From: Nitrososphaerota archaeon
Lineage (GTDB): Archaea; Thermoproteota; Nitrososphaeria_A; Caldarchaeales; Caldarchaeaceae
NCBI GenBank assembly: GCA_041641305.1
Contig: JBEPYN010000001.1
Coordinates: forward strand, 384,001 to 448,000
Length of the DNA stretch: 64,000 bases
Direction: 5' to 3'
Shown here: positions 1,987-38,810 of the stretch, piece by piece
Layout: every line of letters begins with the position of its first letter
How positions within the stretch are numbered: the first letter of the stretch is position 1
Program-made: the position numbers and the translations under genes
Notes under the pieces: model-generated
The model's input: only the letters and a program-made list of their open reading frames with translations
The model's database searches: none
Told to the model about the DNA's origin: nothing

Positions 1987-3013
1987 ACTCTTCTCTCTCC
2001 TCCGCGAGATGCCAAGGCTCGGAGGCGTAGACATCTTCGAGTATCGACTCCGGGGGAAGCGGTGGAATGTTCTCGCATTCTTCTATTGTTTTGCGTATGG
2101 TTTCCTCGGTTGTTTGCCATAGTTTCTCATCCTCGTCCATGCTCCAGAGGCCGCGTTTTATCAGGTGGTTTCGCAGCCTTGATATTGGGTCTTTTCTCCG
2201 CCACATTTCAACCTCCTCATCAGTCCTGTATCGCGATGGGTCGTCGGCTGTGGTGTGGGGCCCAATCCTGTAGGTCACAGCCTCGATCAACGTCGGGCCC
2301 TCACCGCTCCTCGCCTTCTCAACAGCACTCCTCGCCGCGAGATAACAAGCTATCACGTCGTTTCCATCCACGCTAACCCCTTCAAACCCATATGCAAGAG
2401 CTTTTACCGAGAGACGCTCAACAGCTGTCTGCCTACTTACTGGAACAGATATGGCATACTGGTTGTTGACACAGACAAAAACGATGGGTGCCTTGAAGAC
2501 GCCTGCGAAGTTGAAGGCCTCGTGAAAATCTCCTTTCGATGTTGCGCCGTCGCCGAAATAGTTGATGACAACTTCTTTCAGCTTCTTGTATTTGAGGGAG
2601 AGGGCGAAGCCGACGGCTGCCGGAATATGCACAGCGACAGGAATGGGTGCTGGAACTATGCGGCATCCGATGTCTCCGTACACGGCGAAGTCTCTGCCCT
2701 TTAGAGGATCTGCCGAGTTTGCGAGATTTCTGTTCACGATCTCTGCTATGGGAACCCGCCGTGCCACAAACACCGGCAGCTCACGGTAAAGCGGGAATAT
2801 CCAATCATTTTCACCAAGAGCGTAGGCCGTCCCTACTCCGGCGGCCTCCTGTCCCTCAGAGGGTGCATGGATACCTATTTTCCCCATGCGTTGAAGACGC
2901 ATAAGCCACCTATCCAATACACGTGCGACAACCATGTCACGATACATCGACGATAGCAGCCCGGGTTCAAGCTCCTCCTCGGCGAAACCCTCGGGCGAAA
3001 GAACCTGAAACAT
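1970..3013 (-). CDS. pdhA: 2-oxoacid (pyruvate/branched-chain) dehydrogenase E1 alpha subunit
   Basis: GQEA, TPP motif GDGATSKGDFHE...NNQYAIS, YRIGPHTTADDPSRYR. Confidence 0.9.
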   Translation of the reverse strand: MFQVLSPEGFAEEELEPGLLSSMYRDMVVARVLDRWLMRLQRMGKIGIHAPSEGQEAAGVGTAYALGENDWIFPLYRELPVFVARRVPIAEIVNRNLANSADPLKGRDFAVYGDIGCRIVPAPIPVAVHIPAAVGFALSLKYKKLKEVVINYFGDGATSKGDFHEAFNFAGVFKAPIVFVCVNNQYAISVPVSRQTAVERLSVKALAYGFEGVSVDGNDVIACYLAARSAVEKARSGEGPTLIEAVTYRIGPHTTADDPSRYRTDEEVEMWRRKDPISRLRNHLIKRGLWSMDEDEKLWQTTEETIRKTIEECENIPPLPPESILEDVYASEPWHLAEEREEFSRLR

Positions 3014-3062
3014 ACCTTCTATTCAATATATTCCTCTGTGGAATAATTAAATCTTGCCAGAA

Positions 3063-3347
3063 TTAAAGCAAGTAACGGATTCTGAACCCTTTCTCAACAC
3101 TTTCGGGGTTGATTTCCACAATATCCACTCGTGTTACATGGGCAAGAGGAGGCCCTCTCTTACACCATTCGAGAATTTTCTTTACCGCCTGCTCTTCTCC
3201 TGCTACGACGGCCTCCACTGAGCCGTCATCCATGTTTCGCACATAGCCGTCTACGCCAAGGCTGTCCGCAACCTCTTTCATCGACGCCCGGTAAAAAACT
3301 CCCTGAACCCTACCATACACACGCAGCCTGTAACCCACGCGGGCCAT
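3063..3347 (-). CDS. acyP: Acylphosphatase
   Basis: GRVQGVFYR and GYVRNMDDGSVE motifs. Confidence 0.92.
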   Translation of the reverse strand: MARVGYRLRVYGRVQGVFYRASMKEVADSLGVDGYVRNMDDGSVEAVVAGEEQAVKKILEWCKRGPPLAHVTRVDIVEINPESVEKGFRIRYLL

Positions 3348-4744: not shown

Positions 4745-6125
4745 CAGCCAAAAACAATAGATTATTTGCGCTTAGAAGATGAAGACATCCATCCGCGGAT
4801 GGATGTCCGAATGCGGTGTTTGAGAAGCTTACGCTTCAATGACCGCGTCCATAGGGTTTGGATGCGTCGCCAACTGGACGGCAGACGCCTTAGGCCAAAA
4901 TACGCCAGCCGGTGGATAACTCGGCTTGGGGGCCGAAGAAGGGCGCGGCAAGCTGCGAAAAGCCCCGGGTAGCCGCAAGCAGGCGTTGATCCGGGGATGC
5001 CCGAATGGGATTTCCCGGCATCCCGCGCTTCGGCGTGGGATGTCGCTCCACTGCCTCGAGCTGTGGAGCGGGAACCGGCCGAACGGAAGCATCCAAGTAG
5101 GCCGAGGAAAGGAAATCAAAACGAGACTCCCCTAGTAACGGCGAGTGAACGGGGACCAGGCCAAACCGAACCCGCATGGGAAACCATGTGGGGATGTGGG
5201 GTGTGGACCAGCCGCCCTCCTGTGCCCAGCGACCCGAAGCGACTTGGAAAGGTCCGCCATAGAGGGTGACAGCCCCGTAGGGGAAGCTGGGAGTGGAGAT
5301 GGGCTGGTTCCCGAGTACCGCACCTCGGATATGGTGCGGGAAGACAGGAGCCACTGGCTTCTAAGCCTAAGTACCTCCCAAGACCGATAGCGCAACAGTA
5401 CCGTGAGGGAAAGTTGAAAACTACCCCGAGAGGGGGGTGAAAAGCGGTTGAAACCGGCTGGTAATAGACGAGGGCGGCGCGCAAGGTACTCCGTCCGAAC
5501 ACGCCGCGTAGGTGTGGAGGGCGGATTATCCGGCGTCGTCCGCTCCGTCTTGAAACACGGGCCGGGGAGTTCACCGTCGTGGCGAGCTTAACCGCGGAAA
5601 GCGGGTAGGCATGGGGAAACCGAGAAGCCCGCAACCGACTCTTGTCGGCGAGGGGCCGGGTCCGAACAGGGCCTGTAGTCACGGCGGTGAGGCTAGAAAC
5701 CGGGCGATCTAGCCCTGGGTAGGGTGAAGCCGGGCGAAAGCTCGGTCGAGGCCCGAACGCGTCCTGACGTGCAATTCGGTGCGTTGACCTGGGGCTAGGG
5801 GCTAAAAACCAATCTAGCCCGGTGATAGCTAGTTCCCCCCGAAGTGTCTCGCAGGACAGCCTCGGCGGAGGTGGTCCGCGGGGTAGAGCACCGATGGGGT
5901 GGTAAGGGCTCGAAAGGGCCCGCCATCCTTTCGAACTCCGAATCCGCGGACGCCGTAGATGCCGGGAGTGGGGTGTGCGGGGTAAGCTCGCACGCCGAGA
6001 GGGGAACAACCCAGACCGCGGGTTAAGGCCCCAAAGTGCCCGCTAAGTGACAAACCAAAGGGCGTCTCCCTCCTAAGACAGCGGGGAGGTAGGAATAGAA
6101 GCTGCCATCCTCCAAGGAGTGCGTA

Positions 6126-6817
6126 AGTTGCGGAATCTCCGGCGAAAACTAAATTACCCGACTGCTTCTGCATCACGGTGGTGTTGGTTAACGAGGCCTA
6201 TATCGCAGGTGCTCTACGCGATGGCTACGTCGGAAGATACATCGACGTATATGGGAAGGTCCACAGCGTCGTAACACTTTACAACAATGACATCGATTGG
6301 CTAAAACGTGTGGCGGACTTGTTAAATTCCACATATGGAGTCAATGCGAGAATTTTTGTTAACCCCAATCGAACACCGTATCTTCGTGTATATTCAAAAA
6401 GACTTGTACAATATTTTGCTGAAAAATTCTGCCATCCCATAGGAAAGCAGACAAAATGGTGCACGCCTTTATTCATCAAGAACAGCGATGACCCCGAGCT
6501 TTGGAGGACCTACATCGCAGGATACTTTGATGCAGAAGGCGGAATTGATACGATTAAAAAACAGATCAAGTTTCACACATCTTTTGAGGGCTCAACATGC
6601 CCACCCCTTGTAGATATTAAACTAGCGCTCGCACGGTTCTTCGAAATCAGAACCGGAAACGTATGCATGTACCAAAACAATAGGGGAAAAATTCCCAGAT
6701 TTGTTCTACGCATACTCAAGTCGGATAATAGAAAGTTTTTCGGAACATTTCCACTACTTAACACTACAAAAATCCAAAGACTGTTGAAAATTATGCCGGA
6801 GCGTTCGCAACCGCAAG
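6126..6817 (+). mobile_element. Archaeal BHB-type rRNA intron (692 nt) in the GTPase-associated centre of 23S
   Basis: Removal restores GAGTGCGTA|ACAGCTCAC; junction TGCG-TAA / CGCA-AGA with intron stem GTTGCG/CGCAAC; the exon-side helix is weak (relaxed BHB). Confidence 0.9.
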
Positions 6818-6855
6818 ACAGCTCACCCGCCGAGGAGGGGGGCCCCGAAAATTGA
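6178..6855 (+). CDS. Intron-encoded LAGLIDADG homing endonuclease (no stop codon inside the linear intron)
   Basis: YIAGALRDGYV and YIAGYFDAEGGI motifs; low-GC insert in rRNA. Confidence 0.9.
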   Translation: MVLVNEAYIAGALRDGYVGRYIDVYGKVHSVVTLYNNDIDWLKRVADLLNSTYGVNARIFVNPNRTPYLRVYSKRLVQYFAEKFCHPIGKQTKWCTPLFIKNSDDPELWRTYIAGYFDAEGGIDTIKKQIKFHTSFEGSTCPPLVDIKLALARFFEIRTGNVCMYQNNRGKIPRFVLRILKSDNRKFFGTFPLLNTTKIQRLLKIMPERSQPQDSSPAEEGGPEN

Positions 6856-7339
6856 CGGGTCTAAGCGGGCCGCCGAAACCCGGGTTCACCCAGTTGTTGC
6901 TGGGTGGAGGTAGGGGGGCGTGGCGGTTGGGTGGAAGCAGGGCCGTGAGGTCCTGTGGACCGGCCGCCAATGTAGATCCCGGTGGTAGTAACAGCGGAGC
7001 GGGGTGAGAATCCCCGCCGCCGAAGGGGCAAGGGTCTCCCGGCAACGCGTCGTCGGCCGGGAGTAAGCCGGTCCTAAGCCCGACCTTAACCGGGTAGGGC
7101 GAAAGGGAAACCGGTTAATATTCCGGTGCCTCCGGAGTACGTGCGGCGACGCAAGGCCGGTGTCCGACGCTTCGGGGTAGGCTGAGCGGGGCCGTAGCCC
7201 CGTCTAAACGCATAAGCCTGGGGAGTGGCGTAAAGCCGAGAACCAGGTGAAAACGTGAACGGCCGCCCGTATGGGCGGTTCAGCTGATCCCTGGAGCCCA
7301 TGAAAAGGACACCGGCAAGGATCTCCGGAGACCGTGCCA

Positions 7340-7386
<47 letters not shown>

Positions 7387-7408
7387 TCACTCCAGGGCGA
7401 GGGAACTC

Positions 7409-7441
<33 letters not shown>

Positions 7442-7635
7442 TGCCTGAGGCCTTGGCCGCGAGGCTGGGGCCTTAGGTCGCAGTGACTAGGGGGTCCTGA
7501 CAGTTTAATAAAAACCTAGGTAGCCGCGAGACCGAAAGGTTTTGAACGGCTATTGAATCCTGGCCAGTGCGGGTACTCGAAAACCGGGTTCAACCGGCAT
7601 AAGGGCCCGTAAACGCCGGGAGTAACTCTGACTCT

Positions 7636-8772
7636 CGAGCTAAAAGGGAGTCGTTAAACCCGGCTATATGCGGGGAATTCCAGAACCCTTAACTACCTTA
7701 AAAGGTAACAATGTTGAGGGTTATGAGGAAGACCCGCAGGAAACCCCTGCCAACGTGGTCGCCATGCTCACCGAATTCTCCGACATAATTGATCCAAAAG
7801 ATCTTCCGAACAAGCTAAGCCAACTCAAGTGGCATATAACGGGGTTCGTCGACGGCGACGGGAGCTTTCCAATCATTCTCTCTCCAGAGGAGACAAAGAA
7901 ATTCGGCTGGTTGATACAGCCACGCTTCGAGTTGGAGCTGAGAAGCGGCGAAGACTCCGAGACGATGCTCAGAGTGGTTTGCAGAGCAGTGGGGATTAAG
8001 CCGAAAATATTGACGAGCGAAAACTACGTCAAACTAATCGTCACAAACAGGAGACTCCTCCTGGAAAAAGTGGTGCCATTCTTCGAGAAATACAGGCCCG
8101 TAATCAAATGGCGCGACTTCAAGACGATGAGCGAGGTTGCGAAAGACCTACACCAGAAAAAGCATCTAACATATGAGGGCTTCAAGGAGATCATCCGAAA
8201 AATTTACTCGCTACCAATGAATGGCGAGTCGCGGAGAAAGTGGAGGTTCAGCGACATCATACAGGATGAGGAGCCTCCTCAACACGTGGAGAAAAAAGAA
8301 GAACATAGATTTCCCAGGGGACTTGTTCCACTGAAACACTACGTCGCCGGCTTCATAGACGCCGAAGGCTCGTTGGGATTCGTCATAAACAAGGAGACCA
8401 AGTCGATAACACCGTATCTAACAATAACCAGCTCCGAGACAGTTGTGCTACAGAAAATAAGATGGCTTCTGGGATGCGGAGAAATCAGCACAGGAAGGCT
8501 CCAAATCTACGGCGTCGACAACTTCGTCAACAGTGTTGCACCGTTTCTCGACAGACAAAAGCTCATAGCGAAAAGGACAACATACAAGATGTTTAAGCAG
8601 ATTCTTGAGACGGTGGTCAGAGGCGACCACAAAAGAAACTGGGAAGAAACCGTAGCGTTCGTCAAAATGTTGAATAAAAAGGCAGGGGGATCCTCAGAGA
8701 CCATACGCCGGGCGTCCTCATCGAAGACTGGGGGCGAAGATATGGTCCAGCACCCGTAAACCCTGGGTGTTG
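7636..8772 (+). mobile_element. Group I self-splicing intron (1137 nt) at the LSU position equivalent to E. coli 1923
   Basis: P1 GACTCT/GGAGTC with U.G at the 5' splice site; P3 CCCGGC/GCCGGG; P4 TGCGGG/CCCGCA; P7 GACCAT/ATGGTC; terminal G at 8772; exons rejoin as GACTCT|CTTAAGGTAGCC. Confidence 0.92.
7764..8759 (+). CDS. Double-motif LAGLIDADG homing endonuclease in the group I intron (frame open from 7668)
   Basis: HITGFVDGDGSF and YVAGFIDAEGSL motifs; inserted between CCCCTGCC/GGCAGGGG (P6 extension). Confidence 0.92.
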   Translation: MLTEFSDIIDPKDLPNKLSQLKWHITGFVDGDGSFPIILSPEETKKFGWLIQPRFELELRSGEDSETMLRVVCRAVGIKPKILTSENYVKLIVTNRRLLLEKVVPFFEKYRPVIKWRDFKTMSEVAKDLHQKKHLTYEGFKEIIRKIYSLPMNGESRRKWRFSDIIQDEEPPQHVEKKEEHRFPRGLVPLKHYVAGFIDAEGSLGFVINKETKSITPYLTITSSETVVLQKIRWLLGCGEISTGRLQIYGVDNFVNSVAPFLDRQKLIAKRTTYKMFKQILETVVRGDHKRNWEETVAFVKMLNKKAGGSSETIRRASSSKTGGEDMVQHP

Positions 8773-9412
8773 CTTAAGGTAGCCAAATGCCTTGTCGGGT
8801 AAGTTCCGACGTGCATGAATGGATCAACGAGGGCCCCGCTGTCCCCGCCTGGAGCCCCGTGAACCCACGTAACGTGGGCGAACAGTCCACGAACTCCCAA
8901 CGGGGAAAGAAGACCCTGTGGAGCTTTACTGCAGCCTGTCGCTGGGATGTGGACGAGTGTGCAGAGCGTAGCCGGGAGCCGTCGATCCCCGTCTCTCCGG
9001 GGGCGGGGGGAGGCGCCCATGTAACACCGGCCACGCTTGTCTGCATCTCTCACCGGCGCGGAAGCGCTGGAACAACGGCAGGTGGGCAGTTTGGCTGGGG
9101 CGGCACCCCCTTGAAAAGATATCGAGGGGGCCCAAAGGTCGGCTTAGGCGGGACAGAAACCCGCCGTGAAGTGCAAGGGCAAAAGCCGGCTTGACAGGGC
9201 CCTTGAAAGCCAGGGGCCCTGAGGGGAAACCCAGGCCTAGCGATCCATCGGCTCCTACCAGTGGGGGCCGGTGGTGACAGAAAAGTTACCCCAGGGATAA
9301 CAGGCTCGTCGCGGGCGAGAGTCCCCATCGACCCCGCGGCTTGGTACCTCGATGTCGGCTCTTCCCAACCTGGCCGTGCAGAAGCGGCCAAGGGTGCGGC
9401 TGTTCGCCGATC

Positions 9413-9452
<40 letters not shown>

Positions 9453-9859
9453 ATCGGATTTTACCTGTTGGGAGTGCTGGCTGCCTGAGGGGAAGGTGTT
9501 CCCAGTACGAGAGGAACGGAGCGCCGGGGCCAACGGTGTACCGGTTGTCCTACAGGGCAGTGCCGGGCAGCTGCGCCCCCGCGGATAAGGGCTGAAAGCA
9601 TCTAAGCCCGAAGCCGCTCCCGAAAACAGGCAGCCACTCGCCGGGTAAGGGCTCGGCAACGGGCCTATACCGGCGACGAGGGCTCCCGTAGAAGACGGGT
9701 TTGATGGGGCGGGGGTGTACGGATGGAGGCTTCGGCCGGACATCCTCAGCCCGCCGCTCCCAACCGCCCGAGTGGCCTAAGGAAGCCGTCCAGGCGAAAA
9801 CGCATCCCACCCTACTTGGACGCGTAACACTTTATACCGCCTTATCTCATGGTTCCGAC

Positions 9860-29914: not shown

Positions 29915-30347
29915 CGACGAGGACTGAGCAGTGGGCGTGGGACACGACCCCGCTCGCCACGCTTCCCAGCACCACTTTCTTGAAGCCGCTTAAACCCCTC
30001 GTCCCAGTAACGACAAGGTCTACACCATGTGTTTCGGCGAAGCCGGTGATGGCCTCGACAACCGAGGGCCTCATCTCCAACACCTCTCCAACAGCCTTCA
30101 CACCCATCCTCGCAGCCGTCTCAACAGCCTCCTCAACATAGCGTCTCCCCTCCCTCACAGCATCTTCATAAAACTGCTTCAAAGCCGCTGGAGGAACACC
30201 CGACGCGGCGAACAGATAAGGCGGCTGCTGCACAACGTGAAGGAAAATAAGCTCGGCTCCCATCTGTTTACATAAACCAACCGCCACATCTACAGCCTTT
30301 CTGCTAAACTCGGAGCCATCCACAGCGACCAAAACTTTCCTAAACAT
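29907..30347 (-). CDS. Universal stress protein (UspA family)
   Basis: KVLVAVDGS, GTRGLSG...LGSVASGV...CSVLVVK; GGAGG before ATG 30347. Confidence 0.92.
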   Translation of the reverse strand: MFRKVLVAVDGSEFSRKAVDVAVGLCKQMGAELIFLHVVQQPPYLFAASGVPPAALKQFYEDAVREGRRYVEEAVETAARMGVKAVGEVLEMRPSVVEAITGFAETHGVDLVVTGTRGLSGFKKVVLGSVASGVVSHAHCSVLVVK

Positions 30348-30525
30348 ACCTCCTCTAAACATATCCGGGTAAAAACTGTTTACACCCTCCACGGAAAATA
30401 ATCTACCCCGTCTCCGAAAAGATCGTTGAAAGCATTTGCCCAAACTATTAAGGTATTTAGATAATATTTTTCCAAAATGAGGGCAGATAAGAGTATATTT
30501 ACCGCGGCCATGATCTTCGGCGAGG

Positions 30526-32049
30526 GTGTTGTTGGAGGACTTTGGACTGTTGAGTTTTTTCACGGGAAGCTGGCTGGGGGTACTGGTTCTGGCGGGGGTG
30601 GTGATAGCCGCTTCTTTGGCGGCGGTGCGTCTATTCAGGAAGCGGAAGAGTGATGATGTTGTGGTGGAGGAGGTTTTAGAGGTTGAGGAAACCTCTTCTC
30701 CCGAAGTCATCGACCGGTATAGAGTAGACGAGATTATTGAGGTCAGTATAATTAGGCAGGAGAACCGGTATAGGTATGTCGTTGAAGAGCCCAGCCTATC
30801 GGATGAAGAGGAGGAGATTATTAGACGGGTTGAGCAACAGTATTTGAAGAAAGGTGTGGACCCCTTCAAGCTTCTTGAAGAATATGATATAGATGAGGAC
30901 CGTGTAAAGGTGTTGAGATATTTTCTGTGGAAGAATTTGCGGGGTGGTTGGAAGCTTGAGCCTCTTCTGAGGGATGAGGGTCTCGAGGACATAACCATTA
31001 CGAAGCCGGGTCCGGTATACGTCATTCACAGGCGTCACCCAGACCTCGGCTGGATAGAGACCAGCATCGTGCTCACGGCTGAGGAGCTTGATAAACAGGC
31101 GAGGCTGCTTGCCGAGCGGAACGGGGCGGAGCTGAGCATCGCCAAACCCGCAGCCGAGATCATGACAGTCGAAGGCGACCGAATAGCGCTAACCTACGCA
31201 GGCGAACTCACTCCAGGCACAAGCACGATCACTGTACGCAAGTTTCCACGCAGCCCCTACACCATCATCGACCTGATAAAAAAGGGAACCTTGACGGTCA
31301 TAACTGCCGCCTACCTCTGGACAGCTCTCGAGAACAAGAAATTCGTCATGGTTGCTGGGCCGACGGGAAGCGGTAAAACAACGCTTCTCTCGGCACTTCT
31401 CCAGCTGCTTCCATCCAACGCTAAGCTTTTGACGCTCGAGGACTATCATCCCGAGATAAACCTCTCATGGCATAGAAACTGGCACCGATTCGTCACGAGG
31501 CGAACCCTTGGCGAAACAGCCTACTCCCTGGCAGATATCCTGAGGCTCAGCCTCCGACACAGGCCTGACTACACCATTGTGGGGGAGGTTAGGGGTGTTG
31601 AGGCAAGGGTTATGTTTTCGGCAGCCGCAACAGGCCACGGTATGGCGTCGACCATTCACGCCGAAAGCCTCGAGGATGTTTACCAGAGGCTGACCGGTGC
31701 CAGCATGGGTGTTCTAAAGGAGGAGCTCTCGTTCCTCAACGTGGTGGCGATTGTGCGGAACACCTCGAAGGGCAGGAGGGTTATCGGTGTCTGGGAGATT
31801 GAGAGGACTGGGAGCGAGCATTTGATAAGCTGGTTCGACGAAGATACTGGAAAATTCTTTCCCGAGACAGCTAAGCAGCTGATCGTGAATTCACCTATGT
31901 TGGTGCACAACCCATCACTCAGAAGAGACTACGAAAACAAGCTGAGCATTCTCGAGACCGTACTTTCCTCGGGGGAGGAGCTGAGGGCGGAGCAATTATC
32001 TGAGCGGGTGGAGAAGCTTCGGAGAGAGCTGCGGCTTGTCGCTGATTGA
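30526..32049 (+). CDS. Type II/IV secretion (pilus assembly) ATPase, TadA/ArlI-like
   Basis: GPTGSGKTT, LTLED, LRHRPDYTIVGEVRG, TGHG..STIHA. Confidence 0.92.
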   Translation: MLLEDFGLLSFFTGSWLGVLVLAGVVIAASLAAVRLFRKRKSDDVVVEEVLEVEETSSPEVIDRYRVDEIIEVSIIRQENRYRYVVEEPSLSDEEEEIIRRVEQQYLKKGVDPFKLLEEYDIDEDRVKVLRYFLWKNLRGGWKLEPLLRDEGLEDITITKPGPVYVIHRRHPDLGWIETSIVLTAEELDKQARLLAERNGAELSIAKPAAEIMTVEGDRIALTYAGELTPGTSTITVRKFPRSPYTIIDLIKKGTLTVITAAYLWTALENKKFVMVAGPTGSGKTTLLSALLQLLPSNAKLLTLEDYHPEINLSWHRNWHRFVTRRTLGETAYSLADILRLSLRHRPDYTIVGEVRGVEARVMFSAAATGHGMASTIHAESLEDVYQRLTGASMGVLKEELSFLNVVAIVRNTSKGRRVIGVWEIERTGSEHLISWFDEDTGKFFPETAKQLIVNSPMLVHNPSLRRDYENKLSILETVLSSGEELRAEQLSERVEKLRRELRLVAD

Positions 32050-38736: not shown

Positions 38737-38810
38737 TGGGCCGGGGCGGACTTGAACCGCCGACCTCCACCGCGTCAGGGTGGCGTCATACCAGGCTAGA
38801 CCACCGGCCC
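38737..38810 (-). tRNA. tRNA-Val(GAC), no intron, CCA not encoded
   Basis: GGGCCGG acceptor stem, anticodon arm CCACC-CTGACGC-GGTGG, T-arm GGCGG-TTCAAGT-CCGCC. Confidence 0.95.

Follow-up and report, generated by a model that had tools for sequence, protein, structure and literature searches.

Evidence for a presumably mobile IB4-like group I intron alongside a BHB intron in the only 23S rRNA gene of an archaeon of the genus Caldiarchaeum

A covariance-model survey of archaeal group I introns showed that RF00028 (Intron_gpI) missed all 39 introns, which were picked up by just two models, those of the subtypes IA3 and IB4 (Nawrocki, Jones & Eddy 2018, PMC6125680). One of the introns, IB4.9, is 1133 nt long and was placed at BA000048.1:1314432-1313300, at LSU/1923 of an 'Aigarchaeota' genome (Table 1 and supplement, PMC6125680). 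Its host is Candidatus Caldiarchaeum subterraneum, it carries LAGLIDADG_1, its P7 strands are GAGACCA/UGGUCC, and the IB4 subtype model matched it at an E-value of 2e-7 (PMC6125680). The co-occurrence of group I and BHB introns in one host gene was stated in the abstract and the Figure 1 legend of the same paper (PMC6125680). Archaeal BHB rRNA introns can carry LAGLIDADG genes as well, as exemplified by the I-Vdi141I intron (Nomura et al. 2008, PMC2602781), and a splicing endonuclease of the heterotetrameric type was reported in the C. subterraneum genome paper (PMC3082918). Our literature search found no report of experimental or in vitro self-splicing by any archaeal group I intron.

Here we analysed a 64-kb stretch of DNA (the window) that contains a 23S rRNA gene with two insertions. 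The second insertion, at 7636-8772, is very likely a mobile IB4-type group I intron located after position 1923 (helix 69) in the single 23S gene of a Caldiarchaeum-genus archaeon. The homologous intron of genome G009 mapped to C1:1314432-1313300, the published coordinates of IB4.9, indicating that G009 is that record and that the window comes from a congener. Both the kind of intron and the Caldiarchaeum example were already published in 2018, and only the copy of this species is new; as far as we have seen, the copy at 7636-8772 is itself undescribed.

Two insertions in one 23S rRNA gene

The 23S gene, its exons and its upstream intron were assigned as follows.

4887-9783, plus strand: 23S (LSU) rRNA gene (Rfam RF02540, 2551 bits)
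4887-6125, 6818-7635 and 8773-9783, plus strand: 23S exons, 63% G+C
6126-6817, plus strand: intron 1, relaxed BHB intron, 692 nt (co-fold and BHB scan)
6178-6855, plus strand: LAGLIDADG_3 ORF of intron 1, 225 aa (PF14528, 1.5e-10)
7636-8772, plus strand: predicted group I intron, IB4-like, 1137 nt (fold, 14 homologues, homology to published IB4.9)

The gene was about 1.9 kb longer than the RF02540 model because of the two insertions (~6126-6817 and 7636-8772), of which the first carries a LAGLIDADG_3 ORF and the second a LAGLIDADG_1 ORF. The host genome (G000) is 99% complete and has one 23S gene only, so both introns must be handled on the same transcript. No 16S rRNA gene was found within the 64-kb window, and since this window holds the 23S gene, the two rRNA genes appear to be unlinked. 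The sole other Rfam match in the window was a tRNA at 38737-38810 on the minus strand.

The first insertion was examined by co-folding and a scan for the BHB motif. A central helix of 4 bp was formed by 6120-6123 with 6812-6815 (UGCG/CGCA, 4 of 4 pairs), together with an 8-bp stem of 6127-6134 with 6804-6811. The 5' bulge is the canonical one of 3 nt (U6124, A6125 and A6126, with the junction between the last two), and the 3' bulge consists of A6816, G6817 and A6818, with the junction between G6817 and A6818; the latter is classed as relaxed because the outer exon helix is only 1 bp long. The intron sits in the hairpin loop of the GTPase centre, at a site that we take to correspond to about E. 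coli A1095/A1096. Its ORF has no stop codon inside the intron and ends in the downstream exon, 38 nt past the 3' splice site (after 6817). In G009, a 692-nt intron was found at the same site with the same BHB motif and an ORF that is 71% identical. The splicing machinery is encoded in the host genome, namely two splicing-endonuclease paralogues and RtcB. The RtcB match lies outside the window (G000:C1:535991-538729) and was split into two parts that lie about 1.4 kb apart, one covering positions 1-50 of the profile and the other 46-426, within a single open frame of 975 aa; this looks like an RtcB split by an intein of roughly 460 aa.

For the second insertion, the 5' exon ends with ...GUAACUCUGACUCU (...GACUCU in the RNA) at 7635, and the 3' exon begins with CUUAAGGUAGCC at 8773. 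Joining of the exons gives GTAACTCTGACTCT followed directly by CTTAAGGTAGCC, that is, the uninterrupted site GTAACTCTGACTCTCTTAAGGTAGCC, and this joined sequence was identical letter for letter to the uninterrupted 23S gene in 15 of 75 related genomes. The insertion thus directly follows the counterpart of E. coli U1923 in helix 69, and the last base of the intron is G. Because a C follows both junctions, the register is ambiguous by one base; we chose the one with U before the intron and G at its end, which is the register used in the literature for the homologue. The original prediction had proposed an insertion after the 1923-equivalent U with a terminal G, which agrees with the exact coordinates and the uninterrupted relatives, and it had also placed a BHB intron alongside, which was borne out by the score of 6126-6817 as a (relaxed) BHB intron and by the conservation of the motif in G009.

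Ribozyme fold and its support across homologous introns

An MFE fold was run on the intron with the ORF body removed, and the following elements were assigned, all on the plus strand.

7630-7636 with 7646-7652: P1, exon GACUCU and C7636 paired to the internal guide GGGAGUC
7659-7664 (CCCGGC) with 8707-8712: P3, which makes the P3/P7 pseudoknot
7670-7674 with 7733-7737: P4 (MFE folds)
7678-7681 with 7727-7730: P5 (MFE folds)
7684-7693 with 7713-7722: P5a (MFE folds)
7694-7698 with 7703-7707: P5b (MFE folds)
7738-7741 with 8691-8694: P6 (fold, duplex folds)
7744-7751 with 8681-8688: P6a, which closes the loop holding the endonuclease gene
8697 and 8699-8705 with 8741-8748: P7, with A8698 bulged
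8713-8720 with 8729-8736: P8 (fold)
8751-8755 with 8765-8769: P9 (fold)
8681-8772: 3' half of the ribozyme core, comprising P6a'/P6', P7, P3', P8, P9 and the terminal G8772

The MFE fold recovered P1, P4, P5/P5a/P5b, P6/P6a, P7, P8 and P9, while P3 was absent from the drawing because it is a pseudoknot partner that MFE folding cannot draw. The features of a group I intron found here were P1 with its U.G pair, the P3/P7 pseudoknot with P3-P8, P4-P6, a bulged P7 and the terminal G. At the 5' splice site the wobble is U7635.G7647, and a possible P10 of at most 3 bp, seen by eye only, could pair C8773-U8775 with A7644-G7646. The conserved elements were recognisable as AUGCGGGGAA and CCCGCAGG in P4, CAGAGACCAUACG in P7/P3' and AAGAUAUGGUCC in P7'. 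No P2 was found in the fold of 7636-8772, and P5 is extended, two traits that are consistent with IB4; the intron is described here as IB4-like, a predicted subtype that is carried over from the literature on IB4.9. The core was complete, with no structural defect seen. The G+C content was 74% in the core helices, 63% in the 23S exons and 47% in the ORF body. The folding energy of the 5' core gave z = -4.4, while the 3' core alone gave z = -0.7, a value that is not significant, owing to the absence of the strands with which it pairs in P3 and P6.

To support the fold by comparison, homologues were gathered by two routes, the endonuclease protein and a sequence pattern covering the S element, P9 and the 3' exon. 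The set comprised 14 distinct introns at exactly the same site in 14 genomes of the phylum, aligned with MAFFT (alignment A1). Pairing on this alignment reached 85.3% of cells compared with 77.0% in column shuffles (0 of 500 as high), a count that is not a probability because the sequences are related. When the pairing partners were slid, the value fell to 38-47%, and changes on both sides were seen in 25 pairs compared with 14.7 expected. P1 was 100% paired in the 14 introns, with one compensatory switch from U:A to C:G that alters exon and guide together. P3 was also 100% paired, and 3 of its 6 pairs were changed on both sides (CG/UA, GC/AU). Double changes were further found in P4 (100% paired, 2 changes), P5 (87%, 3 changes), the base of P8 (94%, 2 changes) and P9 (100%, 3 changes). 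P7 was 99% paired and invariant, and is thus neutral on covariation; 24 of the 25 bases of its elements CAGAGACCAUACG and AAGAUAUGGUCC were identical in all 14 introns. Two further features were invariant, the U.G pair of the 5' splice site and the terminal G, the latter within a UUG that precedes the 3' exon in 14 of 14.

P6 was checked separately by duplex folding, because MAFFT misaligned P6' between the two-domain and one-domain forms of the intron. The duplex folds showed that every one of the 14 introns keeps P6/P6a, with numerous compensatory changes, and that this helix always closes the ORF-bearing loop. Pairing in the distal parts of P5a, P5b and P8 was low (56-69%) owing to length differences and bad alignment there. 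The fold is argued for more strongly by the slid-partner control and by the changes on both sides of the long-range helices P3 and P6a.

Searches of the whole intron and the window against Rfam, at gathering thresholds and at E<=10, gave no group I match, and RF00028 on 7500-8900 gave nothing at E<=10. When the 3' half was searched alone, RF00028 was the top of 4227 families with 11.8 bits (E 0.48; threshold 50 bits), and this sub-threshold alignment puts the R/S elements (P7, P7'), P3', P8 and P9 at the positions given above. No relevant Rfam match came from the 5' half alone. The miss of RF00028 on 7636-8772 was expected, because the same model missed all archaeal cases in the survey (PMC6125680).

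These results bear directly on the original prediction. Its claim of a group I intron in an archaeal 23S gene is upheld by the fold, by covariation in 14 introns and by homology to IB4.9, and the helices that it had listed (P1 with U.G, P3, P4, P6, P7, P8 and P9) were all found, with P5, P5a and P5b in addition. In the covariance-model check that it had put forward, RF00028 aligned to the 3' half below threshold and gave no match to the whole intron at E<=10, and the structural evidence comes instead from covariation among the homologues.

An alternative is that 7636-8772 is a classical BHB intron cut by the tRNA-splicing endonuclease, the group I-like helices being fortuitous. Indeed, the majority of LAGLIDADG-bearing introns in archaeal rRNA genes belong to the BHB type, the genome has the two endonuclease paralogues and RtcB, and RF00028 stayed below its threshold. 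However, the scan that for intron 1 found all 4 central pairs and 8 bp of intron helix gave only 2 of 4 central pairs, 0 bp of intron helix and 0-2 bp of outer helix here, in both registers, and a BHB intron at 7636-8772 was rejected by this explicit motif scan together with the co-fold. Moreover, long-range P3 and P6a covary across the 14 introns although BHB introns need neither, and it was a group I subtype model that detected the homologue IB4.9. We therefore regard the BHB reading of this insertion as extremely improbable, and treat it below as a group I intron.

The distribution of the group I intron was sporadic, with occupied and empty sites alternating within genera; in genus g10, for example, G046 was occupied and G032 and G048 were empty. 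Such alternation is a pattern typical of homing elements, and it is meant descriptively, as many of the genomes lack parts and relatives do not count as independent cases.

The endonuclease gene in the P6a loop

The loop closed by P6a carries one gene.

7764-8759, plus strand: predicted homing endonuclease gene, 331 aa, two LAGLIDADG_1 domains (PF00961, 6e-22, two stretches)

The two LAGLIDADG motifs read ...FVDGDGSF... and ...FIDAEGSL... (GFVDGDG and GFIDAEG), and both catalytic acidic residues are present (GDG, AEG). Comparison with PDB proteins gave matches to the I-OnuI/I-LtrI family (4e-25; monomeric, full-length), I-Vdi141I (3e54; 5e-7) and I-CeuI (3e-6). As judged from its sequence, the 331-aa protein is predicted to be a monomeric two-domain LAGLIDADG homing endonuclease. 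Its start at 7764 aligned with ATG or TTG in 14 of 14 introns, just past the 5' strand of P6a. A longer ORF starting at 7668 (363 aa) was rejected, as the open frame upstream was not conserved while the start at 7764 was conserved in all 14.

At its other end, the gene overlaps the ribozyme. The last ~26 codons cross P6a', P6', P7, P3', P8 and P7', and the stop codon lies in the P9 loop. In all 14 introns the frame enters the ribozyme core, where P7/P3' encodes the peptide ...SETIRR(AP), and the frame of the two-domain forms extends further, across P8 and P7', and terminates in L9. This overlap constrains RNA and protein alike, and translation into the 3' core could hinder folding of the RNA.

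The two-domain enzyme (330-331 aa) was found only in the window, G009 and G013, while the other 11 of the 14 introns encode one-domain proteins of 177-185 aa. Both domains of the window's enzyme matched the one-domain proteins over their length, with about 36% and 28% identity. A recent internal duplication of the two domains was considered and rejected, since their direct comparison gave motif-level similarity only. As both domains match one-domain relatives lengthwise and share little similarity with each other, the duplication would be old. Such a comparison suggests that an old tandem duplication within the P6a loop gave the two-domain form. Whether, at one rDNA site and within a single lineage of orthologous introns, the enzyme passed in this way from a one-domain (homodimeric) form to a two-domain monomer, by tandem duplication in the P6a loop, is in our judgement an evenly balanced question. 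If true, the Caldiarchaeum-type intron would be a natural thermophilic record of the homodimer-to-monomer transition, in which RNA core and protein tail are co-constrained by one sequence.

The protein might have a second role. LAGLIDADG proteins of this family include maturases, such as I-AniI, and the intron could have a group I fold and still need a protein helper for splicing in vivo, either its own LAGLIDADG maturase or a host factor. Consistent with this, the ORF was intact and conserved in 14 of 14 homologues, none was found without it, P2 is absent and P10 is weak by eye. The core is nevertheless complete and G+C-rich (74% in the helices), with no defect in its structure, and we consider dependence on a helper rather unlikely. 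With such a helper, the intron would not be a true self-splicing one.

Other insertions were seen near this site in related genomes. G083 (L011:1421-1983) and G054 (L012:1333-1895) have a 563-nt insertion between A1927 and A1928, 4 nt past the insertion point of the group I intron. It shows a canonical hBHBh' motif, with a central helix of 4 bp, an intron helix of 5-6 bp and an exon helix of 3 bp. The LAGLIDADG ORF inside it matched the endonuclease of the window's group I intron weakly (E 1.6e-11 and 1e-6). Ribozyme and protein-spliced introns with related enzymes thus target the same rDNA stretch in sister lineages. The proximity of this BHB intron and the relatedness of its enzyme might be relevant to the proposed descent of BHB introns from group I introns. 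In the 23S gene of G013, about 660 extra bases were found shortly downstream of its L1923 group I intron (L003:~2520-3260; G013:C1:~30130-30870), with a LAGLIDADG_3-like ORF at G013:C1:30248-30796 that is 28% identical to the ORF of the window's intron 1. The extra bases probably represent another intron, located just after the group I one.

Proposed splicing and comparison with described introns

We infer that the intron is catalytic, independent of protein, thermostable and currently mobile. By analogy, its splicing would follow a two-step transesterification initiated by guanosine. In this model the intron RNA would take up the fold of the P3-P9 catalytic core, and the end of the 5' exon, GACUCU, would pair with the guide GGGAGUC to form P1 and set the U.G wobble at the splice site. 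An external guanosine held in P7 would attack after U7635, the terminal G8772 would next fill the same P7 pocket, and the freed 5' exon would attack after G8772, so that ...GACUCU becomes joined to CUUAAGG.... The BHB intron at 6126-6817 would presumably be cut by the two-paralogue splicing endonuclease, with its exons joined by RtcB. The 331-aa endonuclease would presumably cut intron-less 23S genes at the site and so bring about homing.

As the genome has a single 23S gene, the group I intron must be removed. Fragmented rRNAs occur in some prokaryotes, and the intervening sequence might likewise be excised without ligation of the exons, or be retained, to leave a fragmented or expanded 23S rRNA. 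The insertion, however, lies in helix 69, an intersubunit bridge, of the only 23S gene, and all elements for the ligating step (terminal G, P9 and internal guide) are present. We give such an outcome hardly any weight compared with removal of the group I intron by splicing.

The original prediction had also held that one pre-rRNA needs two splicing modes. This is correct biology, but the co-occurrence was already published (PMC6125680), and the mixed-splicing concept will for this reason hold little surprise for specialists. With its single 23S gene, the organism offers a clear-cut instance of a transcript that depends on the success of both ribozyme and protein-enzyme splicing. The locus adds one more well-supported archaeal group I intron, from a near-complete genome of a thermophilic hot-spring lineage, and the full helix assignments and comparative support given here go beyond what the 2018 survey offered for this intron. 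The intron is a candidate for showing self-splicing of an archaeal group I intron at high temperature, and a compact, G+C-rich core (~220 nt) from which the ORF can be deleted would, coming from a thermophile, suit as a thermostable ribozyme.

IB4.9 is the closest described intron. It shares with the intron at 7636-8772 the genus of the host, the insertion site LSU/1923, the boundaries, the P7 strands GAGACCA/UGGUCC and a two-domain LAGLIDADG_1 ORF in P6a whose protein is 80% identical, and in the 23S gene of its host, too, a BHB intron of 692 nt with a LAGLIDADG_3 ORF precedes it by about 820 nt. Nucleotide identity between the two was 82% overall, 95% in the 5' core, 87% in the 3' core and 80% in the ORF. 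The introns differ in species and genome, in length (1133 nt in IB4.9 vs 1137 nt in the window), in the ORF body, which has diverged by 20%, and in the sequences of P8 and L9.

IB4.11 and IB4.13, published examples of one-domain L1923 IB4 introns of ~753-756 nt from Nitrososphaeria-type archaea, agree with the present intron in site, core and P7. The one-domain introns also agree with it in the location of the ORF in the P6a loop, its start position and the C-terminal ...SETIRR... encoded by P7/P3'; the difference is their single LAGLIDADG domain, in a protein of 177-185 aa that presumably acts as a homodimer, whereas the window's protein has two. The BHB introns of the I-Vdi141I type have in common with it the 23S rDNA target region and a related enzyme (PDB 3e54, E 5e-7), but they are excised by a protein endonuclease at the BHB and have no ribozyme core, the opposite of the window's second intron. 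Finally, the organellar and bacterial LAGLIDADG group I introns at LSU 1923-1931, among them the Chlamydomonas eugametos chloroplast intron encoding I-CeuI, which we take to be located at 1923, share this rDNA hot spot and the enzyme family (I-CeuI match, E 3e-6), and differ in the domain of life of their hosts.
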